A DNA stretch of 64,000 bases from Candidatus Atabeyarchaeum deiterrae (GCA_037310415.1 CP147780.1:1824001-1888000), one strand, 5' to 3'. Positions 49,320 through 58,706 are shown, numbered from the stretch's first letter. Program-made: numbers and translations. The notes: a model not told the origin generated them from the letters alone.

Positions 49320-51575
49320 CTACTTCTTTGACATACTCTTGCGTCTGCGCATCATCATCAGCGCCGCCGCTATCACGGCGACGACAATTATAGCGGCAGC
49401 AATGATAATGACAAGTGTCAAGTCAGCAGCACCTGATGGTGGCGTAACTAGGCTGGGCATCATGTATGCGATCTCGTTCTCCCATAGTTCCAGCCTGTCT
49501 TGGTAAGTCGAGTTGTCGAGGTCACCAGCAAACTGATCGATAAGGTAACCATTGTATAAGGTATGACCATCATTGCGGAGGACTATGACAGCTTTGTCTG
49601 CCGTGGCTGAGGATGTGGTGCCTGCGAGAGCAGTGGCGTTGGCGAAGACTGTGAGCTGATCACCTTCGTCACCGTAGTCGATTATCGGTGTGAAGTTACC
49701 CGCAGCATAAGCATTCGGAGTCGTGAATATAGCATGACTTGGATTCCAAATGTATAGAGGAGCTGAACCAGGCATGTCTGACGCATAGGCGAAGCCAAGC
49801 TTAGCCCACAGTGGATGACTAGGAGAAAGGCTCACATAATAATAAGAGAAGATTAGGCGACCACCGGTATCTACGTAGTCAGAGATGTCGCTAAGGTACG
49901 CCCCAAAATCATACCACGGACAGTCGATGATTACCAAAGTCCAACTGTAGAGGTGCATCGATAGATTCAAGTATGAACGAGTGAAAGTCAAGGCAAATGG
50001 TATACCCAAGTCATTCAGCGCTTGGCACACAGGAGTTCTGTAGTAGTTGGAACTATAGGGTTCATCTACGTAGAGCAGAACATTTGCCTTTGAAGCGGTG
50101 AGCCAGTTGACAACGTTGATCGCATACTGATGGTGGCTAACGAGATTGATCCGGTTGTTGCGGAACATGCTAGTGTCTGGGATTAGGATGACGCGACCCC
50201 TTCCGTACTGTTGAGCCGCGATGATGATGTTCTGCGCATTAGTACCCCAGATTGGAAATGCAGGGCTGGTATAGTTGACGAATCCTGTTGCTAAGCAGCT
50301 AAGCTGAGTACAGCTCTCTACAGTTGGGTGCTCGACCTTATAGCTGAATGCGCCAGTATAGGCGGAGCTTGTGAGGTTGACGCGGAGATTGAAGTTCGTC
50401 AGGAGGTAGTTAACGTTTTCGTCGTAGTAGGTAATTGGGAGTCCAGGGCGTTCGCCAAAGATGATAGCGGAGCCACCGTTGCTGATCCAAGTTGTGACAG
50501 CCGATACCTCAGAGGATGTGAAGTTCAAATGCGGCAAAACGATGATAATCAGATCGTAGGGCGCTAAGTTGCTGGCAGTCAAGTTTTCAGAGGCGGACGG
50601 ATAGAGTTTATCGAAGGTATATGATCGATTCACGAGAGCGTTTCGCCATTCAGAGTGCTCTTGCGGCGTGACGGCAAGGCTATCCCAGGCATCCACTCCA
50701 TAGTCAGGCTGGTGAGAAAGGTCGTAGGCGATGCGAGCCTTTGGGTGTGGGCATAGCCAGTTTGCTGCGTCGACGATCATCTGATGAAGGCTGGGTAGGG
50801 CTTCATAGGCGTAGTCGTAGGCGAAGGTAACGACTTTGCCTCCACGATTCGTAGGGTCAAAAGCCAGAACGCTAGCGGTGTTGACATTGTCCTGAGAACG
50901 AGCAACCCGTATAAGGGCACTGTGAATCGATGAACCTTGTAGCGCTGTCCAGTTCCACCGCGCATAACCACTGCCAGTGCTGATGATGTTATTCACGTTG
51001 TAATGCTGCGAGACTGGATGCCTCGTGGTGACATTGATGTCGTTCGCAGAATACTTCCAATAAACGTTCAGACCGTTTACGCCCAGAGATTCAGGCGGTA
51101 ATATCCCAGAGTAGCAGAGGTATTCCACTCCGCTGTCGAAGATGAGCAGCCCACCTCCTCCAAGCCAGAACTCAGCTACCATGTTCGTGATGTTTTCTCG
51201 CGGGTCGTTGTCGACGATCGCCAAGACATCGTAGTCCGCTGTCTTCAGCTTATGACTTGATATGTCCTTGATGCTGAGAAGTGTTGTGCTTACTCCATGT
51301 GATTGGAGCATTGCTGCCAGCTGAGAAGCATTATTGTGAAACAAAGCAGGTCCAGAGACGTAACTTGGTTTCGTCGTGTTCGCCATATCGTAATCGTAGA
51401 TGGCGACCCGCACGGTGTGAGTCACCGATGGTACTAGGTCTGCTGTTCTTGAGTTTGTCACTGATGCAGACGTCAGATTTAGAGGTGAAGTGCAAGCAAG
51501 CATCGTTGCGGTTAACAGAAACGCGAGCGTAACAAAAGCTAGAGTTTTATGTCTGCGTTTTTCACTCTCAAACAA
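49320..51575 (-). CDS. Large secreted, C-terminally anchored protein with repeated GATase-like (DUF4350-like) domains
   Basis: Signal peptide; three modules (FWLGGGGLL, WISNGGSAI, YVDTGGRLI); many sequons; C-terminal TM+RRRK. Confidence 0.75.
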   Translation of the reverse strand: MFESEKRRHKTLAFVTLAFLLTATMLACTSPLNLTSASVTNSRTADLVPSVTHTVRVAIYDYDMANTTKPSYVSGPALFHNNASQLAAMLQSHGVSTTLLSIKDISSHKLKTADYDVLAIVDNDPRENITNMVAEFWLGGGGLLIFDSGVEYLCYSGILPPESLGVNGLNVYWKYSANDINVTTRHPVSQHYNVNNIISTGSGYARWNWTALQGSSIHSALIRVARSQDNVNTASVLAFDPTNRGGKVVTFAYDYAYEALPSLHQMIVDAANWLCPHPKARIAYDLSHQPDYGVDAWDSLAVTPQEHSEWRNALVNRSYTFDKLYPSASENLTASNLAPYDLIIIVLPHLNFTSSEVSAVTTWISNGGSAIIFGERPGLPITYYDENVNYLLTNFNLRVNLTSSAYTGAFSYKVEHPTVESCTQLSCLATGFVNYTSPAFPIWGTNAQNIIIAAQQYGRGRVILIPDTSMFRNNRINLVSHHQYAINVVNWLTASKANVLLYVDEPYSSNYYRTPVCQALNDLGIPFALTFTRSYLNLSMHLYSWTLVIIDCPWYDFGAYLSDISDYVDTGGRLIFSYYYVSLSPSHPLWAKLGFAYASDMPGSAPLYIWNPSHAIFTTPNAYAAGNFTPIIDYGDEGDQLTVFANATALAGTTSSATADKAVIVLRNDGHTLYNGYLIDQFAGDLDNSTYQDRLELWENEIAYMMPSLVTPPSGAADLTLVIIIAAAIIVVAVIAAALMMMRRRKSMSKK

Positions 51576-51693: not shown

Positions 51694-52317
51694 CTATTCA
51701 ATCCGCTTTCTTGGTCTCTTGCTTTCCCATCTTCTTGTTGCCCTTTGTGCTAGCAGCTGTGAGTGTTTTTCCCACTGCCCCTCGTCGCCTTTCTTTCTCC
51801 TCCAGATTCTAAACCGACATGTCTCTGCTCCGGCTGGAATTGTCCATTTGAACTCAAAGTCAAAGTTGGGGTCTATCTTCTCTCGAAGATATTTCAGAAT
51901 CCCTTCAACAAGATAACGCTGAACTCGGCAGTCGAAGGGCTTGTATGTGTCTTGATGAGGGCACCAGAGTATGTCGAATATTGCCTCTTCGGAGTTGAGG
52001 ATCTGGGGTCTTTCAATTGAACTCCAGGTAACAGTGTTCACCCATGTTGTCGCAAAACTCACCTTCTCTATGTCTGTCGTGCCTGCTGGAAACTTGGTGC
52101 CTTGAAACATCTGTTCTGCCACGTCGTGGCCCACCTTCGTCATCGCTTCGCTTGCAACTTTCTGCCCTTCAGACCCAAAGTTCTCTTCCACATCTTCCAT
52201 GATTTGTAGAACGGTCTTAGCCATGTAAGTTCCCCAGACAAGGAGTGTGGCAGGGTCAAAGTCTGGTCTTCCAGCTACCTCTCTTCTGAACGTCTCAATT
52301 GCTTTCGCGTAAGGCAT
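51694..52317 (-). CDS. ATC-hydrolase/V4R-like (HNOX clan) protein
   Basis: ENFGSEG, FDILWCP, DCRVQ, TIPAGAETCRF. Confidence 0.7.
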   Translation of the reverse strand: MPYAKAIETFRREVAGRPDFDPATLLVWGTYMAKTVLQIMEDVEENFGSEGQKVASEAMTKVGHDVAEQMFQGTKFPAGTTDIEKVSFATTWVNTVTWSSIERPQILNSEEAIFDILWCPHQDTYKPFDCRVQRYLVEGILKYLREKIDPNFDFEFKWTIPAGAETCRFRIWRRKKGDEGQWEKHSQLLAQRATRRWESKRPRKRIE

Positions 52318-52460
52318 ATTGAACTTCGTTCCTTTCCAATTCCTCTCCTTTCGTTGACCCTTTGATAGAATTCCATCGGTTATCAAACTTGGCACCCGAC
52401 CCATGATGTAACCTGAGAACCTATATATAGATCAGCCGACAAAGAATCAAAGGGCTAGCG

Positions 52461-52979
52461 ATGAGGGCGAGGACGTTTAAGGTCATCGTTGTCGGGGAAG
52501 GTGGTGTGGGGAAGACTAGCCTCGTCAGAAGATACGTGGACAGGGTTTTTACTGAAGGCACGATGTCTACTATCGGAGTGGACTTGTCTTCCAAGACTAT
52601 ATTGAACGATGGGGTGGAAGAGATCCTTCAGATTTGGGATCTGGGGGGTCAACCTAGATTCAGGAATATTGCAGACCTTTTCTTCAAGGGGGCTAGTGGC
52701 GCCATAGCAGTGTTCGATGTCACAAGGAAAGAAACCCTATGCGAGTTGAGCGATTGGATTAAACATCTGCGCTTTGTGACTGGGAGCATACCCCTAGTTT
52801 TCGTTGGAAACAAGGTGGATCTGAGAACCTCAAGAGACCATGTCTCGTCAGGCGTCTCTAGGGAAGAAGCAATCAGATTTGCACAAGATTATAGTTCACC
52901 CTATGTTGAAGCCTCAGCTAGAAAAGGCTCTGGCGTGGAAGAGGCGTTCAAGGCTCTCGTAGTAAGACTGGGAGCTTAG
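52461..52979 (+). CDS. Rab-like small GTPase
   Basis: GEGGVGKTS, TIGVD, WDLGGQ, NKVD, SAR; RabF-like LQIW, RFRNIA, FFKGA, VFDVT. Confidence 0.95.
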   Translation: MRARTFKVIVVGEGGVGKTSLVRRYVDRVFTEGTMSTIGVDLSSKTILNDGVEEILQIWDLGGQPRFRNIADLFFKGASGAIAVFDVTRKETLCELSDWIKHLRFVTGSIPLVFVGNKVDLRTSRDHVSSGVSREEAIRFAQDYSSPYVEASARKGSGVEEAFKALVVRLGA

Positions 52980-53043
52980 GTTCTGCAGTTGACTTTCTTC
53001 ACTTGCCCTGTCGTACGAAATATGAGTTTGAGAGCTGGGAAGG

Positions 53044-53544
53044 GTGGTGGATGACTTGAACGAAACTATCAGGCAGTACAGGATCTCTGACCGTGCGAGT
53101 ATGATCAAATGCATGGAAGGGTTGCAGGATTATCTTATCTCGATCGATGAAATGAGGAGAGAGAGGCGGATGCCAGGTTATGGGGAGAGCTATACGGAGA
53201 GACTGCTTATGCGAATTCGAAGAGAGGATGGCATTGCATATGTCGCTGAGGATCAGGGCAGGATCATCGGTCTCATTGCAGGTGTGATACTTCGGCAATC
53301 AAAAGAGGACTTGCTTGAGTGTGTTCCATCAAAGGATGGTAGAATACTCGAGTTATTCGTTGATCCGCAGCATCGGGGACGAGAGGTCGGCAGGATGTTG
53401 ATGGAAAAGATCGAGAGATATTTCGTTGAGAAAAAATGCGACGCTGTACACGTCGAAGTCTTCGCACCAAACCTCGACGCCCGCGCTTTCTACCGAAGAG
53501 TCGGGTACGGGGATCGGGTTGTCGACATGATGAAGAAACCGTGA
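53044..53544 (+). CDS. GNAT acetyltransferase
   Basis: LFVDPQHRGREVG, N..ARAFYRRVGY. Confidence 0.9.
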   Translation: MVDDLNETIRQYRISDRASMIKCMEGLQDYLISIDEMRRERRMPGYGESYTERLLMRIRREDGIAYVAEDQGRIIGLIAGVILRQSKEDLLECVPSKDGRILELFVDPQHRGREVGRMLMEKIERYFVEKKCDAVHVEVFAPNLDARAFYRRVGYGDRVVDMMKKP

Positions 53545-53785
53545 TAGGTCTCGGTGCGTGCGACAAAATTCGAATCTTCCATTTTCGAGACCAGCTGGAA
53601 AGCTCCACTCCTTCGGTGATGCGACATCCGCAACAATACTGAGAACCAGATGTGAAAGTAGACAAACTCTTTATTATGCCATACTATATAGGAGAGTTGT
53701 AGAACATACTAAGGAGGTCACATGCCTAGGTCCACAGTAGTCCTAGATAAAGTGTGAATAGGCAACTCGGGGGTCAGAGGCGTTC

Positions 53786-54037
53786 TTGCCTGAAAGAAAA
53801 CTTCACGACTTCCCTTGTCCAGTGTGCAAGAGTATTATCAGCGGGGTAGTGGTCAAGGAAGAAGACATACTGGGCGCGAAGCGCTCTCCGGCGCTTGTGC
53901 CAGCAAAGTGTCCCGGCAAACACGATGTGGCGTTGTATGTAGATAAGCAATTCAGAATAAGAGACGCGGAACCCCTGATTGATCCTAAGACTGCTGGAGG
54001 ATTGGACAAGGCTAGGAAGTGGATCTCTGAATTATGA
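53786..54037 (+). CDS. Small Zn-binding protein
   Basis: CPVC..CPGKH..LYVDKQFRIR; TTG start. Confidence 0.7.
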   Translation: MPERKLHDFPCPVCKSIISGVVVKEEDILGAKRSPALVPAKCPGKHDVALYVDKQFRIRDAEPLIDPKTAGGLDKARKWISEL

Positions 54038-54093
54038 GAAGCCTGGGGCCTGACCGATAGACATATCGATGAGCTGTGGGTGGGAAACAGTTC

Positions 54094-54483
54094 ATGATAC
54101 ATAATCTCTATGTATTTGATGAGAATGGACTGCCTCTTCTAACGATAAAACTTGGCAGTATAGAGGCCGATGGTGCTCTATTGACAGGCTTCCTATCAGC
54201 AATGCAGTCTTTTTCGAAGAAGATCTCACAGGGAGATGTTGAAGAGATCAACTTCAAGGACTTTAACTTTCATATCAGATCGCTTGGATCATTGTATGTT
54301 GCTCTGGTGGCTGATAAGACCGATCACGACATTGCCTTCAGGCTGGCTGAGGTCTCGAGCATTGTTGAGAAGCACAAAGACAGCCTTTCCGATAATGCAG
54401 TGCAGACAGATATTAAGAATGCCATAACAAAGAAGGTTGGCATCAGAGACAGGGCGAAAGATTGGGCGAACATAGGTCTCTAG
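54094..54483 (+). CDS. Longin-like domain protein
   Basis: MIHNLYVFDENGLPL, LLTGFLSAMQSFS, VEEINF, LYVALVAD (beta-beta-alpha-beta-beta-beta-alpha-alpha). Confidence 0.85.
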   Translation: MIHNLYVFDENGLPLLTIKLGSIEADGALLTGFLSAMQSFSKKISQGDVEEINFKDFNFHIRSLGSLYVALVADKTDHDIAFRLAEVSSIVEKHKDSLSDNAVQTDIKNAITKKVGIRDRAKDWANIGL

Positions 54484-54510
54484 TAGTCAAAGAGGAGATG
54501 ACCCGTAGAA

Positions 54511-56016
54511 ATGGAAGCATTACAAGCAGCTTCATTTGTGGTGGCAATAGCCTTTCTGCTTGCTTTTATCTCTACCCTAAGGTTCTATAGAGGCAGAGTG
54601 ACAAAGACACGAGCCGAACAGAGATCTGCACTGAGGCCTACCCTCATCATTTCAGTTTCCTTTTTGATGGGAGCGATTGCCCTCTTCGTCAATTTCTACT
54701 CACTACTGATCTACCCCGCCTTCCCAACGACATTTCCTCCACCGCTCGTCGTGGGCGTCTATCCTTGGGAGTTTGCCACTGAGTTGCTGACCCCACTGTT
54801 TGGATTCCTTGTCATGGTCGCCGTCGTCACAGCTTTGAGACGACCTCGGCTGTATGCGCTACCTGTAGCCCTACTTGCGGTGTGTTACATTCTGTCGCTG
54901 CTCTCTCCTAAGCATCCGATGGATGATCCTTTCCTTACGTTCTGGCTTACTTCAAGCTCTCTCATGATTTTTCTGCCCATGCTTCTCTTCCTTTATCTCT
55001 GGGCAAGCACTAAGAGGCCGACTGCTTTTGGGATGTTCACTGGTCTTCTGCTCTACCAGGTCTTCTACACACTTTTCTCCACAACTGAATCTGAGTACGT
55101 TGGAGTACTGGGCTTCTATGCTCCAGCGGAGTATGAGACTCACATTCTGAGATATGGCGTCTTCTATCCTTTCATATTTGTTGGCATATTGCTTGCAGTT
55201 GCTGGTCTGTCCTTTGTCATTTGGAGTTTCTTCTACTCTGAGAAGAAGCTTGGCGGGGAACTCATTGGATACTCTCTGTCGACTGCGGTCATCGGAACAG
55301 AACTCTCAATAATTCTTCTATCACTGGGGACCTTCGCGATTGGGTACTCTATTACGCTCCTCATAACAGCGTTTGGAGCAGGTATCTTCATTCTTACAGG
55401 TTCATACTTATACGGTCGGTATAGAGAGAGTCGTCATACCCAGACATTGATGCTTTCGATTTTCTCGTATTTCGCAGGTTTGAGTTTCTTAATGTTCAAC
55501 ATTGGTCAGCACATCTACCTACTATATGGGCGTCTTGCCTGGTTTGACATAGTGACGCTAACGCTTGGATTGCTCACTGGTGGTTTCCTGTTCCTTGCAG
55601 CGATAACTGCCATGGAGCGAAGATCCCTAGTTTTACTCCCGCCTGCGGTGATAATCCCTCTATTCATTATGTCACTGCTATTCATGCCTTTACCTCCATG
55701 GCTTCTTGCTGTTATGGCTGGAGCAGCGCTGCTGATGACTGTTCTTCCGGGCGTGATGTTCTTTGTTCTTTGGAGAAGAATGAGTAAGGGAAAGGAGAAA
55801 GGGAGAGGTCGAGTCTTAGGAATATTTCTTGGATTCCTCTTTTTGATATTGTCTTCCCCGATCTTGATCCTGAGCTCCACGGTTCCTGATCCAATAGCGT
55901 TCGTAGCCTCAATTGTGGGAATAGCCGGTTCGATTCTAGCATTCGTTGGATCATTCCTCTTCTATCTAGGTGTCTCAGGTAGATTGGACAGGTGGTTCCA
56001 CGAACGGAGGCACTAG
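54511..56016 (+). CDS. About 15-TM membrane protein made of two 7-TM repeats
   Basis: Internal repeat visible (see findings); no transporter motif recognised. Confidence 0.75.
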   Translation: MEALQAASFVVAIAFLLAFISTLRFYRGRVTKTRAEQRSALRPTLIISVSFLMGAIALFVNFYSLLIYPAFPTTFPPPLVVGVYPWEFATELLTPLFGFLVMVAVVTALRRPRLYALPVALLAVCYILSLLSPKHPMDDPFLTFWLTSSSLMIFLPMLLFLYLWASTKRPTAFGMFTGLLLYQVFYTLFSTTESEYVGVLGFYAPAEYETHILRYGVFYPFIFVGILLAVAGLSFVIWSFFYSEKKLGGELIGYSLSTAVIGTELSIILLSLGTFAIGYSITLLITAFGAGIFILTGSYLYGRYRESRHTQTLMLSIFSYFAGLSFLMFNIGQHIYLLYGRLAWFDIVTLTLGLLTGGFLFLAAITAMERRSLVLLPPAVIIPLFIMSLLFMPLPPWLLAVMAGAALLMTVLPGVMFFVLWRRMSKGKEKGRGRVLGIFLGFLFLILSSPILILSSTVPDPIAFVASIVGIAGSILAFVGSFLFYLGVSGRLDRWFHERRH

Positions 56017-56022
56017 GACGTA

Positions 56023-56565
56023 ATGATCAAGAAGAACGTGTTTAAGATCATCATAGTTGGGGAAGGCGGCGTAGGCAAGACCAGCCTTGTCAAAAGACAC
56101 GTAGATGAATCTTTCAAAGAAGACATGAAGATGACCATAGGAGTAGACTTGAGCGTCAAGAGGATGAGAGTGAATGATGAGGAAAGAATGCTTCAGATCT
56201 GGGATCTGGGAGGGCAACCCCACTTCAAGAGCGTTGCTGACCTATACTTCAAAGGAGCACACGGCATGATGTCTGTCTTCGATGTCACCAGAAGGGCATC
56301 CATGGATAGACTAGTCGACTGGATTGACCGCGTCTATGCTACTGTCGGACAAATACCTATGGTAGTAGTCGGAAACAAGGTGGATTTGAGGAACCCTGGT
56401 GAAGGTATAGCAGGAGTGAGCAAAGAAGAAGGAAGAGAGTTTGCAACCAGATACCAGTCACCATATCTTGAGACCTCTGCCAAAGATGGCTCAGGAGTAG
56501 ATGCGGCATTCCAAGATCTCGTCAGCACGTTGTGCCGTGAGAGTCAGTCAATCAAGCCTCCTTAA
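56023..56565 (+). CDS. Rab-like small GTPase
   Basis: GEGGVGKTS, TIGVD, WDLGGQ, NKVD, SAK; paralogue of 52461. Confidence 0.95.
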   Translation: MIKKNVFKIIIVGEGGVGKTSLVKRHVDESFKEDMKMTIGVDLSVKRMRVNDEERMLQIWDLGGQPHFKSVADLYFKGAHGMMSVFDVTRRASMDRLVDWIDRVYATVGQIPMVVVGNKVDLRNPGEGIAGVSKEEGREFATRYQSPYLETSAKDGSGVDAAFQDLVSTLCRESQSIKPP

Positions 56566-56781: not shown

Positions 56782-58056
56782 ATGAATCCAACCAAGATAG
56801 ATGCGGGTCAACGACTCAAGAGCGTCTATCTTCTAGCATTTGCTAACGCGTTTTGGGCGGCTGGTTACGGGATGTATGGTTATATATTCCCGAATTTCCT
56901 CAAATCAGTAGGTGCGACTTCTGCCGATGTTGGTTTCGTGGCTACCATTCTGATCTTGCTTCAAGCTGTCACCTATATTCCTGGAGGCATCCTCAGTGAT
57001 GCAGGACACAGAAGAGCACTTATCATAGCATCATGGCTGCTGCCTGCTTTCGCACCCCTTTTCTTCATCGAAGCCGAGGCGACTCATTCATGGTTGAATA
57101 CGATTCCAGGGATCTTACTATTCGCCAGCGGTTGGATAGGTGCCCCAGCAGTTCAATCATATGTCAGCGAAGCGTCATCATTTGGAAAGAGAGGGCTTGC
57201 TTTTGGAATAATGGTGTCTTCTGGTCCTTTGGGACTTGTCCCATCTCCGCTAATCGGTGGTCTAATTTATGATCAATATGGGATTACGACTCTTTTCCAG
57301 GTAGCATTTGCTCTATACGTTATTTCCACTGCAATGGTCCTGGCGGTCCCGAGATTGAAGGGAGACTATGTCCACAGAGAGGCTCATCTAGTTGAGAAAC
57401 CCGCGAAACCGCTAGAACAAAAAAGCCGAAGCAATGCCTACGAAACAGGAGTTAAGAGTATCAAGGCCAAAAAAAGCCGTACAGGAAGCAACACGGGCAT
57501 TCTACTAAGGCGACTCGTCCCCATGGTCATTCTGAGTTGTCTCTTTCTTGGTTTGGTATACATCGGATCTTCCTTCGTCTCCCTATATCTGATGGAAGAA
57601 TATGGTTATCCTTACAGTCTGATACAGATCATGTTCGCTATTCAGAATCTGTCATCAGCCGTCGTAGTCACCCTACTCGGCAAACTAAGCGACAGATATC
57701 CACCAGCCAACAAATTAGCGCTGGTCGCGATACCTGCAATTGCACTGATCATGGGATACTCTATCCTGCTCCTAACATCAAACCCAGTAGTTCTATCCTT
57801 GGCTTTCGTGTTCATTGGTTCGGTTTCTGCCCTCTTCCCGATAGTCTTCAGCGTAGTGGGTGAGCTTAGCAAGGGGGGGCATGCTGCCCGAAGCTTTAGC
57901 ATAATCATGACTATCCTCTATGTAGCTGAGGCGTCGACGCCTTTCCTTGGGGGCGTCCTATACGGCATCTCGGCGCAGTTGCCTTTCGTCTTAATGCTAA
58001 GTTTAAGTCCTCTCGTGTTTGCATTAACGGTATACGCGCGCAGGAAAACACACTGA
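56782..58056 (+). CDS. MFS transporter (12 TM)
   Basis: GGILSDAGHRR, GKLSDRY, PLIGG. Confidence 0.9.
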   Translation: MNPTKIDAGQRLKSVYLLAFANAFWAAGYGMYGYIFPNFLKSVGATSADVGFVATILILLQAVTYIPGGILSDAGHRRALIIASWLLPAFAPLFFIEAEATHSWLNTIPGILLFASGWIGAPAVQSYVSEASSFGKRGLAFGIMVSSGPLGLVPSPLIGGLIYDQYGITTLFQVAFALYVISTAMVLAVPRLKGDYVHREAHLVEKPAKPLEQKSRSNAYETGVKSIKAKKSRTGSNTGILLRRLVPMVILSCLFLGLVYIGSSFVSLYLMEEYGYPYSLIQIMFAIQNLSSAVVVTLLGKLSDRYPPANKLALVAIPAIALIMGYSILLLTSNPVVLSLAFVFIGSVSALFPIVFSVVGELSKGGHAARSFSIIMTILYVAEASTPFLGGVLYGISAQLPFVLMLSLSPLVFALTVYARRKTH

Positions 58057-58166
58057 TGTTCAAAGTCAAGGTTGATTCTCATTTGCATATGAGCGCAATC
58101 GATCAGCCTGTCCTGCATTGCAGCTCAGGCTTTCCCTCAACTGTCGTGCGTAGGAGGAAGTCAATC

Positions 58167-58706
58167 GTGGGAAAAAGCGATGAATTGTCCATTAAGGGTT
58201 CCGTGATTCGCTTAGTAACTGGGGATATTACCGAACTCGATGTTGATGCAATAGTAAACGCGGCCAACTCGTACCTTAAGATGGGTGGGGGAGTTGCCGG
58301 TGCGATTCTTCGAAAGGGCGGAAGAAGGATCCAAGACGAATGCGACCGGATTGGTTACTGTCCTGTAGGGAGTGCGGTTATTACTACTGGGGGCGATCTC
58401 AGAGCCAAATACGTCATACATGCTGTTGGACCAAGAAATGGAGAAGGAGAGGAGGAAGACAAGCTAAGAAACGCTACATTGAGTAGTCTGAAATTAGCAG
58501 ACAAATATGATCTGAAGAGTACAGCATTCCCAGCGATCTCGACGGGAATATTCGGCTTCCCCGGAGACAGATGTGCAAGAGTAATGGTCCCGACGGTAAA
58601 GTCATACCTGCTGAACGAGAGAACAAGTCTGAAGCTAGTGGTCTTCTGTTTGTACGACAAGGACACTTCCCGAATCTTCAAAACTGAGCTGGAGAGATCA
58701 GTCTGA
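58167..58706 (+). CDS. Macro domain protein (O-acetyl-ADP-ribose deacetylase-like)
   Basis: GDIT, DAIVNAAN, GGGVAGAI, IHAVGP, FPAISTGIFG. GTG start after AGGAGG. Confidence 0.95.
   Translation: MGKSDELSIKGSVIRLVTGDITELDVDAIVNAANSYLKMGGGVAGAILRKGGRRIQDECDRIGYCPVGSAVITTGGDLRAKYVIHAVGPRNGEGEEEDKLRNATLSSLKLADKYDLKSTAFPAISTGIFGFPGDRCARVMVPTVKSYLLNERTSLKLVVFCLYDKDTSRIFKTELERSV

Follow-up and report, generated by a model that had tools for sequence, protein, structure and literature searches.

The conserved unit described here consists of four genes, which encode a zinc-ribbon protein, a longin-fold protein, a tandem 7TM membrane protein, and a small GTPase. It is proposed, with a probability of roughly 55%, that this module is a membrane-docked small-GTPase switch, held by the 7TM protein and regulated by the longin-fold protein. 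No paper describing the module was found, and its novelty, claimed in an earlier sequence-only reading, holds as far as literature searches reached. In bacteria, the actinobacterial conservon is a functional analogue.

The module was found in a window of 64,000 nt, the whole stretch of Candidatus Atabeyarchaeum deiterrae DNA that was analysed. Six open reading frames on the plus strand occupy the locus (52461-56565), in the order G1 (a GTPase), GNAT, Zn protein, longin, membrane protein, and G2 (a GTPase) (Table 1). Their positions, and the gaps of 56 nt (Zn/longin), 27 nt (longin/membrane), and 6 nt (membrane/G2), had been read correctly, as confirmed by ORF calls. For the longin gene, ORF calling also offered an alternative GTG start at 54076; the ATG at 54094 is preferred, given the alignment of orthologues and a GGTGG 15 nt upstream. 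The run was said to be flanked by two paralogous GTPases. The paralogy stands, but G1 lies 806 nt away, outside the tight Zn-longin-membrane-G2 run, because the GNAT gene, which had been overlooked, intervenes between G1 and the Zn gene. The GNAT protein matches Acetyltransf_1 (3.3e-20; Pfam); phmmer found no homologue of it in 20 loci (L031-L050), and the gene is not at the corresponding loci of G003 and G002, the two closest genomes. It is a neighbour gene and not part of the conserved module. MFS transporter genes flank the locus here and in G003. Two TATA-like elements were picked out by eye, from their pattern only, and the one 5' of the Zn gene may provide Zn-longin-7TM-G2 with a promoter of its own. 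Two short metatranscriptome contigs lie inside the longin and membrane genes; none bridges genes.

Table 1. Features of the locus (positions within the window; residue numbers for the elements of the longin model).
Feature	Position	Strand	Basis
TATATATA, TATA-box-like element, 39 nt 5' of G1 start	52422..52429	+	pattern only, by eye
G1, module-type GTPase paralogue, 172 aa	52461..52979	+	Pfam Ras
GNAT acetyltransferase gene	53044..53544	+	Acetyltransf_1
AT-rich TATA-like stretch in 241-nt gap 5' of Zn gene	53670..53693	+	pattern only, by eye
Small zinc-ribbon protein, 83 aa, gene opens the conserved module	53786..54037	+	Cys/His ligand set
Longin-fold protein, 129 aa	54094..54483	+	AF2 model
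Polytopic membrane protein, 501 aa, 15 helices	54511..56016	+	AF2 model
G2, conserved module GTPase, Rab-like, 180 aa	56023..56565	+	Pfam Ras
Longin model, DSSP elements (residues)	E2-9, E14-19, H27-41, E50-54, E57-64, E67-74, H80-93, H101-112, H117-128		

A homologue of the membrane protein is present in 47 of 400 Asgard genomes, and the hosts are mainly Thorarchaeota-type families and Atabeyarchaeia. Gene order was compared at 42 places with such a homologue, in 40 loci of other Asgard genomes. The longin gene lies directly upstream of the membrane gene in 41 of these places, the Zn gene is also present in 40, and an adjacent same-strand GTPase occurs in 37, following the membrane gene in 23 and preceding the Zn gene in 14. 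The longin-to-membrane spacing is -21 to +27 nt everywhere except in one place (137 nt, L038). Its recurrence at 40 loci outside this genome puts the arrangement far beyond chance. Gene order persists although the membrane proteins are only 20-26% identical between families, and it survives both the shift of the GTPase between the module ends and whole-module duplications within genomes. The synteny expected in Asgard genomes is, therefore, strong for Zn-longin-7TM and one GTPase. The four genes are co-inherited as one Asgard module and are probably co-translated.

The Rab-like nature of the two GTPases, also part of the sequence-only reading, is supported by Pfam and by solved structures. G1 and G2 match Pfam Ras (4.5e-42, 143.8 bits, and 3.5e-46, 157.2 bits; cut-off 21.6) and are mutual best paralogues (E 1e-56) among the approximately 20 small GTPases of the genome. 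The best solved relative of G2 is Thor-Rab 7ezb (9e-35), then Rab18 and Rab1; Rab, Ypt or Sec4 chains account for 58 of its best 60 PDB matches, the remaining two being 1zbd (Rab3A-rabphilin) and the Rab-like domain of RASEF. The G2 stretches IGVDL, MLQIW, YFKGA, and VFDVT resemble RabF signature motifs (RabF1-F5) and may correspond to them. In an alignment of 37 GTPases of the module clade, made up of G1, G2, and 35 sequences of other genomes, the G1-G5 motifs of the Ras superfamily are invariant (GxGGVGKTS, T38, DLxGQ, NKxD, SA), and switch II of G2 reads WDLGGQP, not WDTAGQE. A C-terminal Cys prenylation motif (CC, CXC, CAAX) was found in none of the 37, in line with what had been noticed for G1 (ending ...VVRLGA) and G2 (ending ...QSIKPP). 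In a tree of the module GTPases together with 15 further small GTPases of this genome and 2 non-module ones from Thorarchaeota loci, the module GTPases form one clade (support 100/98) that excludes these 17. G1 is a long branch (0.79) inside the module clade, sister to G2 and its G003 orthologue. In G002 and G003, an orthologue of G2 stands at the corresponding place; since it is also the best match to G1 in both genomes, neither holds a separate G1 copy. G1 is missing from the syntenic G003 locus, the flanks being otherwise syntenic in G002 and G003. G1 is a recent extra switch copy specific to the lineage of this genome, and a pair of flanking GTPases is not conserved.

The AF2 model of the membrane protein (pLDDT 91, pTM 0.88) arranges its 15 helices as 7TM, a linker helix, and 7TM. 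The tandem nature of the protein had been recognized beforehand, and an hhalign comparison of its N and C halves (97.7% probability, E 2e-12, 163 columns) establishes an internal duplication of a 7TM bundle. The N-terminus is outside and the C-terminus inside, with 27 K+R in the inside loops vs 2 in the outside ones, and loop conservation is 2.45 bits inside vs 1.30 outside (p 2e-27). The idea that the protein senses a ligand found no support: nothing points to a ligand site, and the outer loops are short, variable, and poorly conserved. Residues 272-494, the second bundle, superpose on ADGRL3 (8jmt_A; Z 17.7, rmsd 3.7, 210 aa), and the best 50 structural matches to them are all GPCR-fold chains. 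In the Atlas, each half is similar to bacterial 7TM sensor modules, and neighbours there carry 7TMR-DISM_7TM. A GPCR-like fold alone shows neither common descent nor receptor function. The protein matches no Pfam family, including 7TM-receptor and transporter families, and neither HATPase nor HisKA was found in it (Pfam); among 57 relatives, no Pfam family recurred at E up to 1. Only 69 representative clusters were found among 1.84 billion proteins, 0 of them fused to another domain.

The best-placed of the alternatives, though an unlikely one, is that the membrane protein is a transporter, 'transceptor' or cargo, controlled in its activity or placement by the GTPase with the longin and Zn proteins as regulators. 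It would then be no receptor acting on the GTPase, and the arrangement would be akin to lysosomal SLC38A9 with Ragulator-Rag or LYCHOS/GPR155 with GATOR1. An internal duplication in a 14-15-helix protein is likewise a common trait of transporters, the locus is flanked by the MFS transporter genes mentioned above, and a conserved cytoplasmic face would suit control from within the cell. However, the absence of any transporter match in Pfam speaks against it, conserved positions lie at the cytoplasmic helix ends with no conserved charged or polar residues within the membrane, and the repeats are parallel GPCR-type 7TM bundles, not an inverted transporter repeat. LYCHOS/GPR155, the top whole-chain Foldseek match, could be counted in favour of a transporter, but the match is weak (E 0.016, TM 0.29) and probably reflects the GPCR-like part only.

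The longin-fold protein was modelled with moderate confidence (pLDDT 74). Its topology is b-b-a-b-b-b-a-a-a, without an N-terminal helix (DSSP), and an extra C-terminal helix bears a conserved Trp. The closest fold is synbindin/TRAPPC4 (2zmv_A; Z 14.4, rmsd 2.4, 114 aa), and VAMP7 (Z 12.3), Sec22 (Z 12.0), and the TRAPP core (Z 11.7) also match (all VIA). Structure searches further returned Mon1 and CPLANE longins and, with Foldseek, AP sigma, Bet5, and LAMTOR (E 1e-5). Roadblock chains score about Z 8-10, covering only residues 1-95 of the model, and MglB chains Z 9.5-10.4. The model topology and the synbindin match bear out the longin-like assignment made from the sequence, and the regulator is predicted to fold as a longin rather than as a roadblock protein. 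The protein stays below the Pfam cut-off, with Fuz_longin_1 as best family (14.2 bits vs 26.1, E 0.053); with E up to 1 allowed, 8 of the 42 orthologues hit that family (best 0.0016). MON1 in the PDB is reached at E 0.42 and Robl_LC7 only at E 0.065. The Zn protein carries the ligand set CPxC...C...H, in which 41 orthologues share C11, P12, C14, and C42 without exception and H46 almost without exception; it matches no Pfam or NCBIfam family (Pfam E up to 0.01), and its Atlas neighbours are Asgard-only and hypothetical. A Trp-bearing AxxW C-terminal tail is common to both proteins: in the Zn protein it reads DKAxxW(I/M)xx(L/F), with the Trp 5 residues from the C-terminus in 40/41 orthologues, and in the longin protein the Trp stands 6 residues from the C-terminus in 41/42.

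Complex prediction for the longin and membrane proteins gave a score of 0.39 vs 0.00 for the best control. Of 80 solved complexes, 58 score at least this high, as do 2 of 110 mismatched pairs; the band from 0.39 up to 0.60 holds 7 of the solved complexes and both mismatches. At least 96% of contacts agree between runs, and partner pLDDT is at least 72; no interface was obtained. Translational coupling makes the prior for such a contact high. The prediction lends weak support to binding of the longin protein to the membrane protein. The predicted interactions expected in the sequence-only reading are upheld to this limited degree for that pair, whereas the contact of the GTPases with the membrane protein put forward there is hypothetical.

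Next in standing, and improbable in our view, is a soluble switch similar to MglA/MglB or the conservons, in which the GTPase works with a longin GAP and a second regulator, the Zn protein. Its outputs would lie in polarity, the cytoskeleton or gene expression, and the membrane protein would serve as a passive, dispensable anchor. The membrane gene is absent from the Zn-longin-GTPase sets at L058 and L077, which shows that the three soluble components can occur on their own. The GTPase presumably cycles because its catalytic Gln is invariant, a further point for this alternative, as is the conservon precedent, a four-part system where the roadblock protein is probably a GAP and the small partner MfpC a GEF (PMC13621833, PMC11343762). 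Against it, the longin-membrane gene pair is retained in 41/42 places, usually overlapping or within 27 nt, the constraint on the cytoplasmic face exceeds the needs of a passive anchor, and the regulator is modelled as a longin, not a roadblock protein.

For the membrane-docked switch we infer the following mechanism, and with it every binding step, GEF or GAP role, sensing, and receptor function named here. The 15-helix protein in the cell membrane would offer its strongly conserved cytoplasmic face, on which the Zn and longin proteins may dock via their Trp-bearing tail helices, possibly one protein per 7TM bundle. The longin platform would bind the dedicated GTPase, itself without a lipid anchor, thereby fixing its membrane site, and would set its nucleotide state; a change in the 7TM bundles could gate the switch. 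A GEF-type role of the longin protein appears slightly more likely than a GAP-type one because it has no conserved Arg finger. Eukaryotic longin GEFs are heterodimers, which counts against this role, given one longin gene in the operon; a single longin gene per module is also found in most loci, and the longin protein may form a homodimer. Doubtful is the stronger claim that the tandem 7TM protein is a receptor of GPCR-type fold, whose conserved cytoplasmic face would drive exchange on the GTPase directly, jointly with the tail-docked longin and Zn proteins. That the genes are neighbours by descent only, with no joint function, is very improbable: the weak complex prediction would fit, but the order is kept despite the low identity, GTPase relocation, and module duplications, and the GTPases have a clade of their own.

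Dimers of longin and roadblock proteins act as small-GTPase platforms (Levine 2013, PMC3747258; PMC10933270), and the actinobacterial conservon (CvnA-D; Mfp) has been likened to receptor-G-protein coupling (PMC13343842, PMC13621833, PMC11343762). Similar to the conservon, the module is a prokaryotic four-gene operon that combines a sensor-type membrane protein, a roadblock/longin-superfamily protein, a small partner without family, and a Ras-like GTPase. It differs in that the membrane part is a tandem 7TM without the histidine-kinase/ATPase domain of CvnA, the platform is a longin rather than the roadblock/LC7 protein CvnB, the small partner is a zinc ribbon rather than the DUF742 protein CvnC, the GTPase is Rab-like, and the hosts are Asgard archaea; no sequence relation between the two was found (Pfam/NCBIfam). 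MglA/MglB also place a small Ras-like GTPase gene beside that of a roadblock-superfamily regulator, whereas the module has longin topology, a Rab-like GTPase with DxxGQ, and two further conserved partners. With TRAPP (TRAPPC1/TRAPPC4 = Bet5/Trs23) and Mon1-Ccz1 it shares a longin fold near synbindin and a Rab-like partner GTPase; it has one longin gene vs their heterodimer, its GEF role is predicted, and its operon lacks the TRAPPC3/Bet3-type subunits of TRAPP. Another conserved Asgard operon encodes a LAMTOR1-like roadblock protein, a Rab-like GTPase, and a DENN protein (Liu et al. 2021; bioRxiv 10.1101/2020.10.19.343400). Both operons pair a Rab-like GTPase with roadblock/longin-superfamily regulators, but the present module, without DENN and with the zinc ribbon and membrane protein, is much rarer. 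GPCRs (adhesion class B2 best) and 7TMR-DISM proteins share the seven-helix bundle with N out and C in; the module protein differs in having neither sequence-family membership nor an ectodomain and, from GPCRs, in two bundles per chain joined by an eighth helix and an operon without heterotrimeric G protein or G-alpha. LYCHOS/GPR155-GATOR1 and SLC38A9-Ragulator-Rag are lysosomal nutrient sensors in which a polytopic protein is coupled to small-GTPase regulators. The module resembles LYCHOS in that longin/roadblock proteins, as small-GTPase regulators, are joined to a polytopic protein of which one part is a GPCR-like 7TM bundle, but it has no DEP, PIN-like transporter domain or Rag-type GTPase; the resemblance to LYCHOS and SLC38A9 is to be taken as an analogy rather than a shown relationship.

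The operon points to a switch that can be tested, together with the likely regulators and the membrane partner of that switch. If the receptor claim is true, this would be prokaryotic 7TM-receptor-to-G-protein coupling in close relatives of eukaryotes, and it would either resemble an ancestor of GPCR signalling and of nutrient sensing of the LYCHOS/SLC38A9 type or parallel them by convergence.

The longin-like protein, the small Zn protein, the membrane protein, and the Rab-like GTPase encoded side by side in the window are read here as parts of a membrane-docked small-GTPase switch, with a probability of roughly 0.55. It is proposed that the longin and Zn proteins would dock on the double-7TM protein, at its conserved cytoplasmic face, and would there recruit the GTPase, which carries no anchor of its own, and set its nucleotide state; either of the two might act as a GEF or as a GAP. 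The closest known system in function-level architecture is the actinobacterial conservon, in which a membrane sensor is combined with a roadblock protein, a small partner protein, and a GTPase of Ras-like type; its roadblock protein is the likely GAP and its small partner the GEF (PMC13621833, PMC11343762), so the two roles can be divided between two small partners. Every part of the Asgard module comes from a different family, and the module is therefore not a conservon member.

Genes of the module and those directly preceding it in the window
Feature	Position	Strand	Evidence
GTPase G1	52461-52979	+	ORF
GNAT acetyltransferase	53044-53544	+	Acetyltransf_1, 3.3e-20
Zn protein, 83 aa, Cys/His	53786-54037	+	ORF
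Longin-like protein, 129 aa	54094-54483	+	ORF
Membrane protein, 501 aa	54511-56016	+	ORF
GTPase G2	56023-56565	+	ORF

The window occupies positions 1,824,001-1,888,000 of the source genome, which is complete (2.76 Mb). The sequence-only reading, which saw two Rabs flanking a Zn protein, a longin, and a tandem 7TM protein, gave the intergenic spacings of 56, 27, and 6 nt correctly, and all of its genes are present; it passed over the GNAT gene, and its interpretation is supported in part. The gap between the GNAT and Zn genes is 241 nt long and contains TATA-like stretches, and TATATATA is located 39 nt upstream of G1; given these sequence patterns, G1-GNAT and Zn-longin-membrane-G2 may be two transcription units. 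Genes of an MFS transporter and a Macro-domain protein (56782-58706), with a stop/start overlap at 58056, come after the module both here and in the relative G003, deposited as Atabeyarchaeia-1, an Asgard lineage from wetland soil. On the other side, a 751-aa protein (49320-51575, minus strand) has a signal-like N-terminus, a C-terminal membrane helix, and weak matches to DUF4350, the IFT52 GIFT domain, and GldG-type ABC auxiliary domains; its gene is absent at the syntenic place of G003. The gene at 51694-52404 was considered as a V4R/TRAPP-like partner and rejected, as Pfam identifies it as ATC_hydrolase and it is absent from the G003 locus. Its orthologue in G002 (isolate LC30; L032:3802-7216) is matched in three pieces (aa 4-57, 58-148, and 149-230), with other DNA, about 1.3 and 1.4 kb long, in between; the gene is thus interrupted twice.

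Both GTPases score well beyond the Pfam Ras threshold and retain every G motif, the catalytic Gln included, and among solved structures the best matches of G2 are Thor-Rab (7ezb), Rab18, and Rab1. They are Rab-like, yet fail the defining Rab feature, since the C-terminal Cys motif is missing in G1, G2, and every orthologue, as the lack of a prenylation motif noticed from the sequence had indicated. In a maximum-likelihood tree of 20 sampled module GTPases, 15 other small GTPases of the window's genome, and two from Thorarchaeota loci that are not module GTPases, the module GTPases form one clade (support 100/98), with the switch II sequence WDLGGQP(R/H)F common to them. Thor-Rab 7ezb was rejected as a solved representative of this clade because it falls outside it, and for the clade GTPase of Thorarchaeota SMTZ1-45 (L105) the PDB gave no match at 1e-30. 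G1 lies within the clade on a long branch, and G1 and G2 are reciprocal best matches (E 1e-56) among the approximately 20 small GTPases of the genome. The best match of G1 in each of the two closest genomes, G002 and G003, is the G2 orthologue, and neither has a second copy. The order in G003 is MFS, Zn, longin, membrane, G2, MFS, Macro, MetRS, which is the window order minus the genes of the DUF4350-like and ATC_hydrolase-like proteins, G1, and GNAT. The last two are local additions; the two flanking Rabs, although present in the window, thus reflect a lineage-specific duplication and not the architecture of the system.

The AlphaFold2 model of the longin protein (42-sequence alignment; pLDDT 74, pTM 0.70) begins with a strand and runs b-b-a-b-b-b-a-a, followed by an additional final helix, a predicted topology that is longin and not roadblock. 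The all-against-all structural search places synbindin/TRAPPC4 first (Z 14.4, rmsd 2.4, 114 residues), followed by the longins of VAMP7, Sec22, TRAPP, AP sigma, and COPI zeta at Z 11-12, whereas roadblock proteins reach Z 8-10 and span only the first ~95 residues. Foldseek and ESM Atlas are consistent with the longin fold. At the sequence level, the protein reaches no Pfam threshold: Pfam and NCBIfam give nothing at E up to 0.01, and relaxing Pfam to E up to 1 brings up Fuz_longin_1 and Robl_LC7 alone, both sub-threshold. The profile search against PDB sequences gave nothing significant (MON1, E 0.42). The family alignment contains no conserved Arg, which argues against an Arg-finger GAP of the FLCN/Nprl2 type. 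The search for fused or longer proteins containing this longin found none, a weak negative.

The Zn protein, for which Pfam and NCBIfam give nothing at E up to 0.01, has the pattern of a zinc ribbon, with C11, C14, and C42 invariant and H46 near-invariant among orthologues. Its C-terminus reads DKAxxW(I/M)xx(L/F), and in 40 of 41 orthologues the Trp stands five residues from the terminus. The longin, an unrelated protein, closes with (K/R)AxxWAxxxL, whose Trp is six residues from the terminus in 41 of 42. The same C-terminal motif in two unrelated operon proteins, together with two homologous 7TM bundles, may point to two equivalent docking sites for the tails on the membrane protein. A second Zn-ribbon copy, 71% identical over residues 1-72, occurs at L071:13136-13606 (genome 91135-91605), with the Trp tail replaced by an unrelated ~84-aa extension and an EAP30/Vps36-like (ESCRT-II) gene ~5.5 kb upstream. 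This locus was rejected as a second module, as no longin, 7TM, or GTPase gene lies alongside.

The membrane protein is modeled with 15 helices (pLDDT 91, pTM 0.88), and profile comparison of its N and C halves (97.7% probability, E 2e-12, 163 columns) identifies it as an internal duplication. The distribution of Lys and Arg, 27 in inside-assigned loops versus two outside, places the N-terminus out and the C-terminus in; helix 8 is a linker, so that the two seven-helix units are oriented alike, in the GPCR manner, which bears out the description as a tandem 7TM protein. It has no Pfam/NCBIfam match at E up to 0.01, nor a Pfam match at E up to 1. Its family, with 69 representative clusters among 1.84 billion proteins, is small and uniform, and neither fused nor longer relatives turned up among these proteins, which is a weak negative. 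Foldseek of the whole model against the PDB gave no match at E up to 0.001; the LYCHOS hits (E 0.016, TM 0.29) are retained as an analogy only. Atlas comparison shows each half to be similar to 7TM modules from bacterial sensors. That the protein is a transporter or transceptor under regulation is unlikely, although this is the best placed of the alternatives. Conservation averages 2.45 bits in inside loops and helix ends versus 1.30 outside (p 2e-27), and the invariant residues E250, Y254, R303, and G490 and the stretches TRRxT, YGRWRESR, and RMRK lie at the cytoplasmic boundary.

A soluble MglAB-like switch, for which the membrane protein would be merely a passive anchor, is slightly less probable. 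Variants without the membrane gene exist, with Zn-ribbon, longin, and module-clade GTPase genes in a row (L058:2421-3876 and L077:3179-4513), and that of L058 adjoins a complete module, directly upstream. It is also rather doubtful, and a little more so, that the tandem 7TM protein acts as a receptor directly driving nucleotide exchange on the GTPase. As to fold alone, residues 272-494 match GPCR 7TM domains, best ADGRL3 (Z 17.7, rmsd 3.7, 210 residues), and all 50 of the 50 best chains have the GPCR fold, designed ones among them, but helical bundles obtain high scores from arrangement alone below about Z 13 and only the top match is clearly above that.

Relatives of the membrane protein were found in 47 of the 400 Asgard genomes searched: both other genomes of the window's own family (2/2), 3/19 in a second family, and 41/89 in one large and two small families, mostly Thorarchaeota in public records; none occur in the other 28 families scored, one of 135 genomes among them. 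Synteny, compared at 40 loci with 42 homologue places, is kept: the longin gene is immediately upstream of the membrane gene on the same strand in 41 places, the remaining one being truncated by a contig end, and the Zn gene precedes the longin gene in 40. The GTPase gene follows the membrane gene in 23 places and precedes the Zn gene in 14. The other four longin-bearing places comprise one with the GTPase on the opposite strand, one at a contig end, one with a divergent pair, and one with a second membrane copy. The usual spacings, an overlap of 21 or 18 nt or a gap of 1-13 nt, suggest translational coupling. That the genes are mere neighbours is highly improbable. Several genomes contain two or three copies that have diverged; at L062:5001-10610 (G318, another Asgard genome) two diverged modules stand head to head, with more small-GTPase genes alongside.

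Complex prediction for the longin and membrane proteins scored 0.39 versus 0.00 for the best control, a mark that 58 of 80 solved complexes and two of 110 mismatched pairs attain, with scores of up to 0.60 at this mark in only seven of those 80 complexes and in both mismatches. At least 96% of contacts agree between runs, with a partner pLDDT of 72 or more; the prediction thus passed weakly and gave no interface, which, given the strong prior from gene coupling, is counted as mild support. One wetland metatranscriptome run yielded contigs of at least 99% identity within the longin gene (54256-54462) and the membrane gene (55313-55526); three other runs yielded none. No contig spans two module genes, and these two short ones are compatible with co-transcription or its absence. 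At 54393 the longin-gene contig has C where the genome has T, probably a strain difference.

Asgard genomes encode dozens of small GTPases, and dozens of longin/roadblock proteins. In strain MK-D1, operons that join a GTPase gene to roadblock, longin, or TRAPPC3 genes are not the general rule (Tran et al. 2024, PMC10933270), and so, at least in this cultured Lokiarchaeon, genome layout does not match GTPases to regulators. Liu et al. (bioRxiv 10.1101/2020.10.19.343400) described a conserved Asgard operon in which a Rab-like GTPase is joined by a LAMTOR1-like roadblock and a DENN protein; it differs from the Zn-longin-7TM-GTPase module. Among the Asgard-eukaryote structural families given in a 2026 preprint are 7TM and GPCR-like clusters; the preprint mentions no operon. 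Full-text literature searches and the Asgard papers checked contained no description of the module, in line with the initial impression that it had not been described.

The window's genome adds the Atabeyarchaeia lineage to the range of the module, and a recent duplication of its switch (G1). The module supplies a match between GTPase and regulators, pairing a single GTPase clade with a single longin, zinc protein, and membrane protein, and offers a concrete docking motif in a compact protein set open to expression and assay; being directly testable, it is of real interest to eukaryogenesis research. If the membrane protein gates the switch, an archaeon would be using eukaryote-like parts for a receptor-to-G-protein logic.
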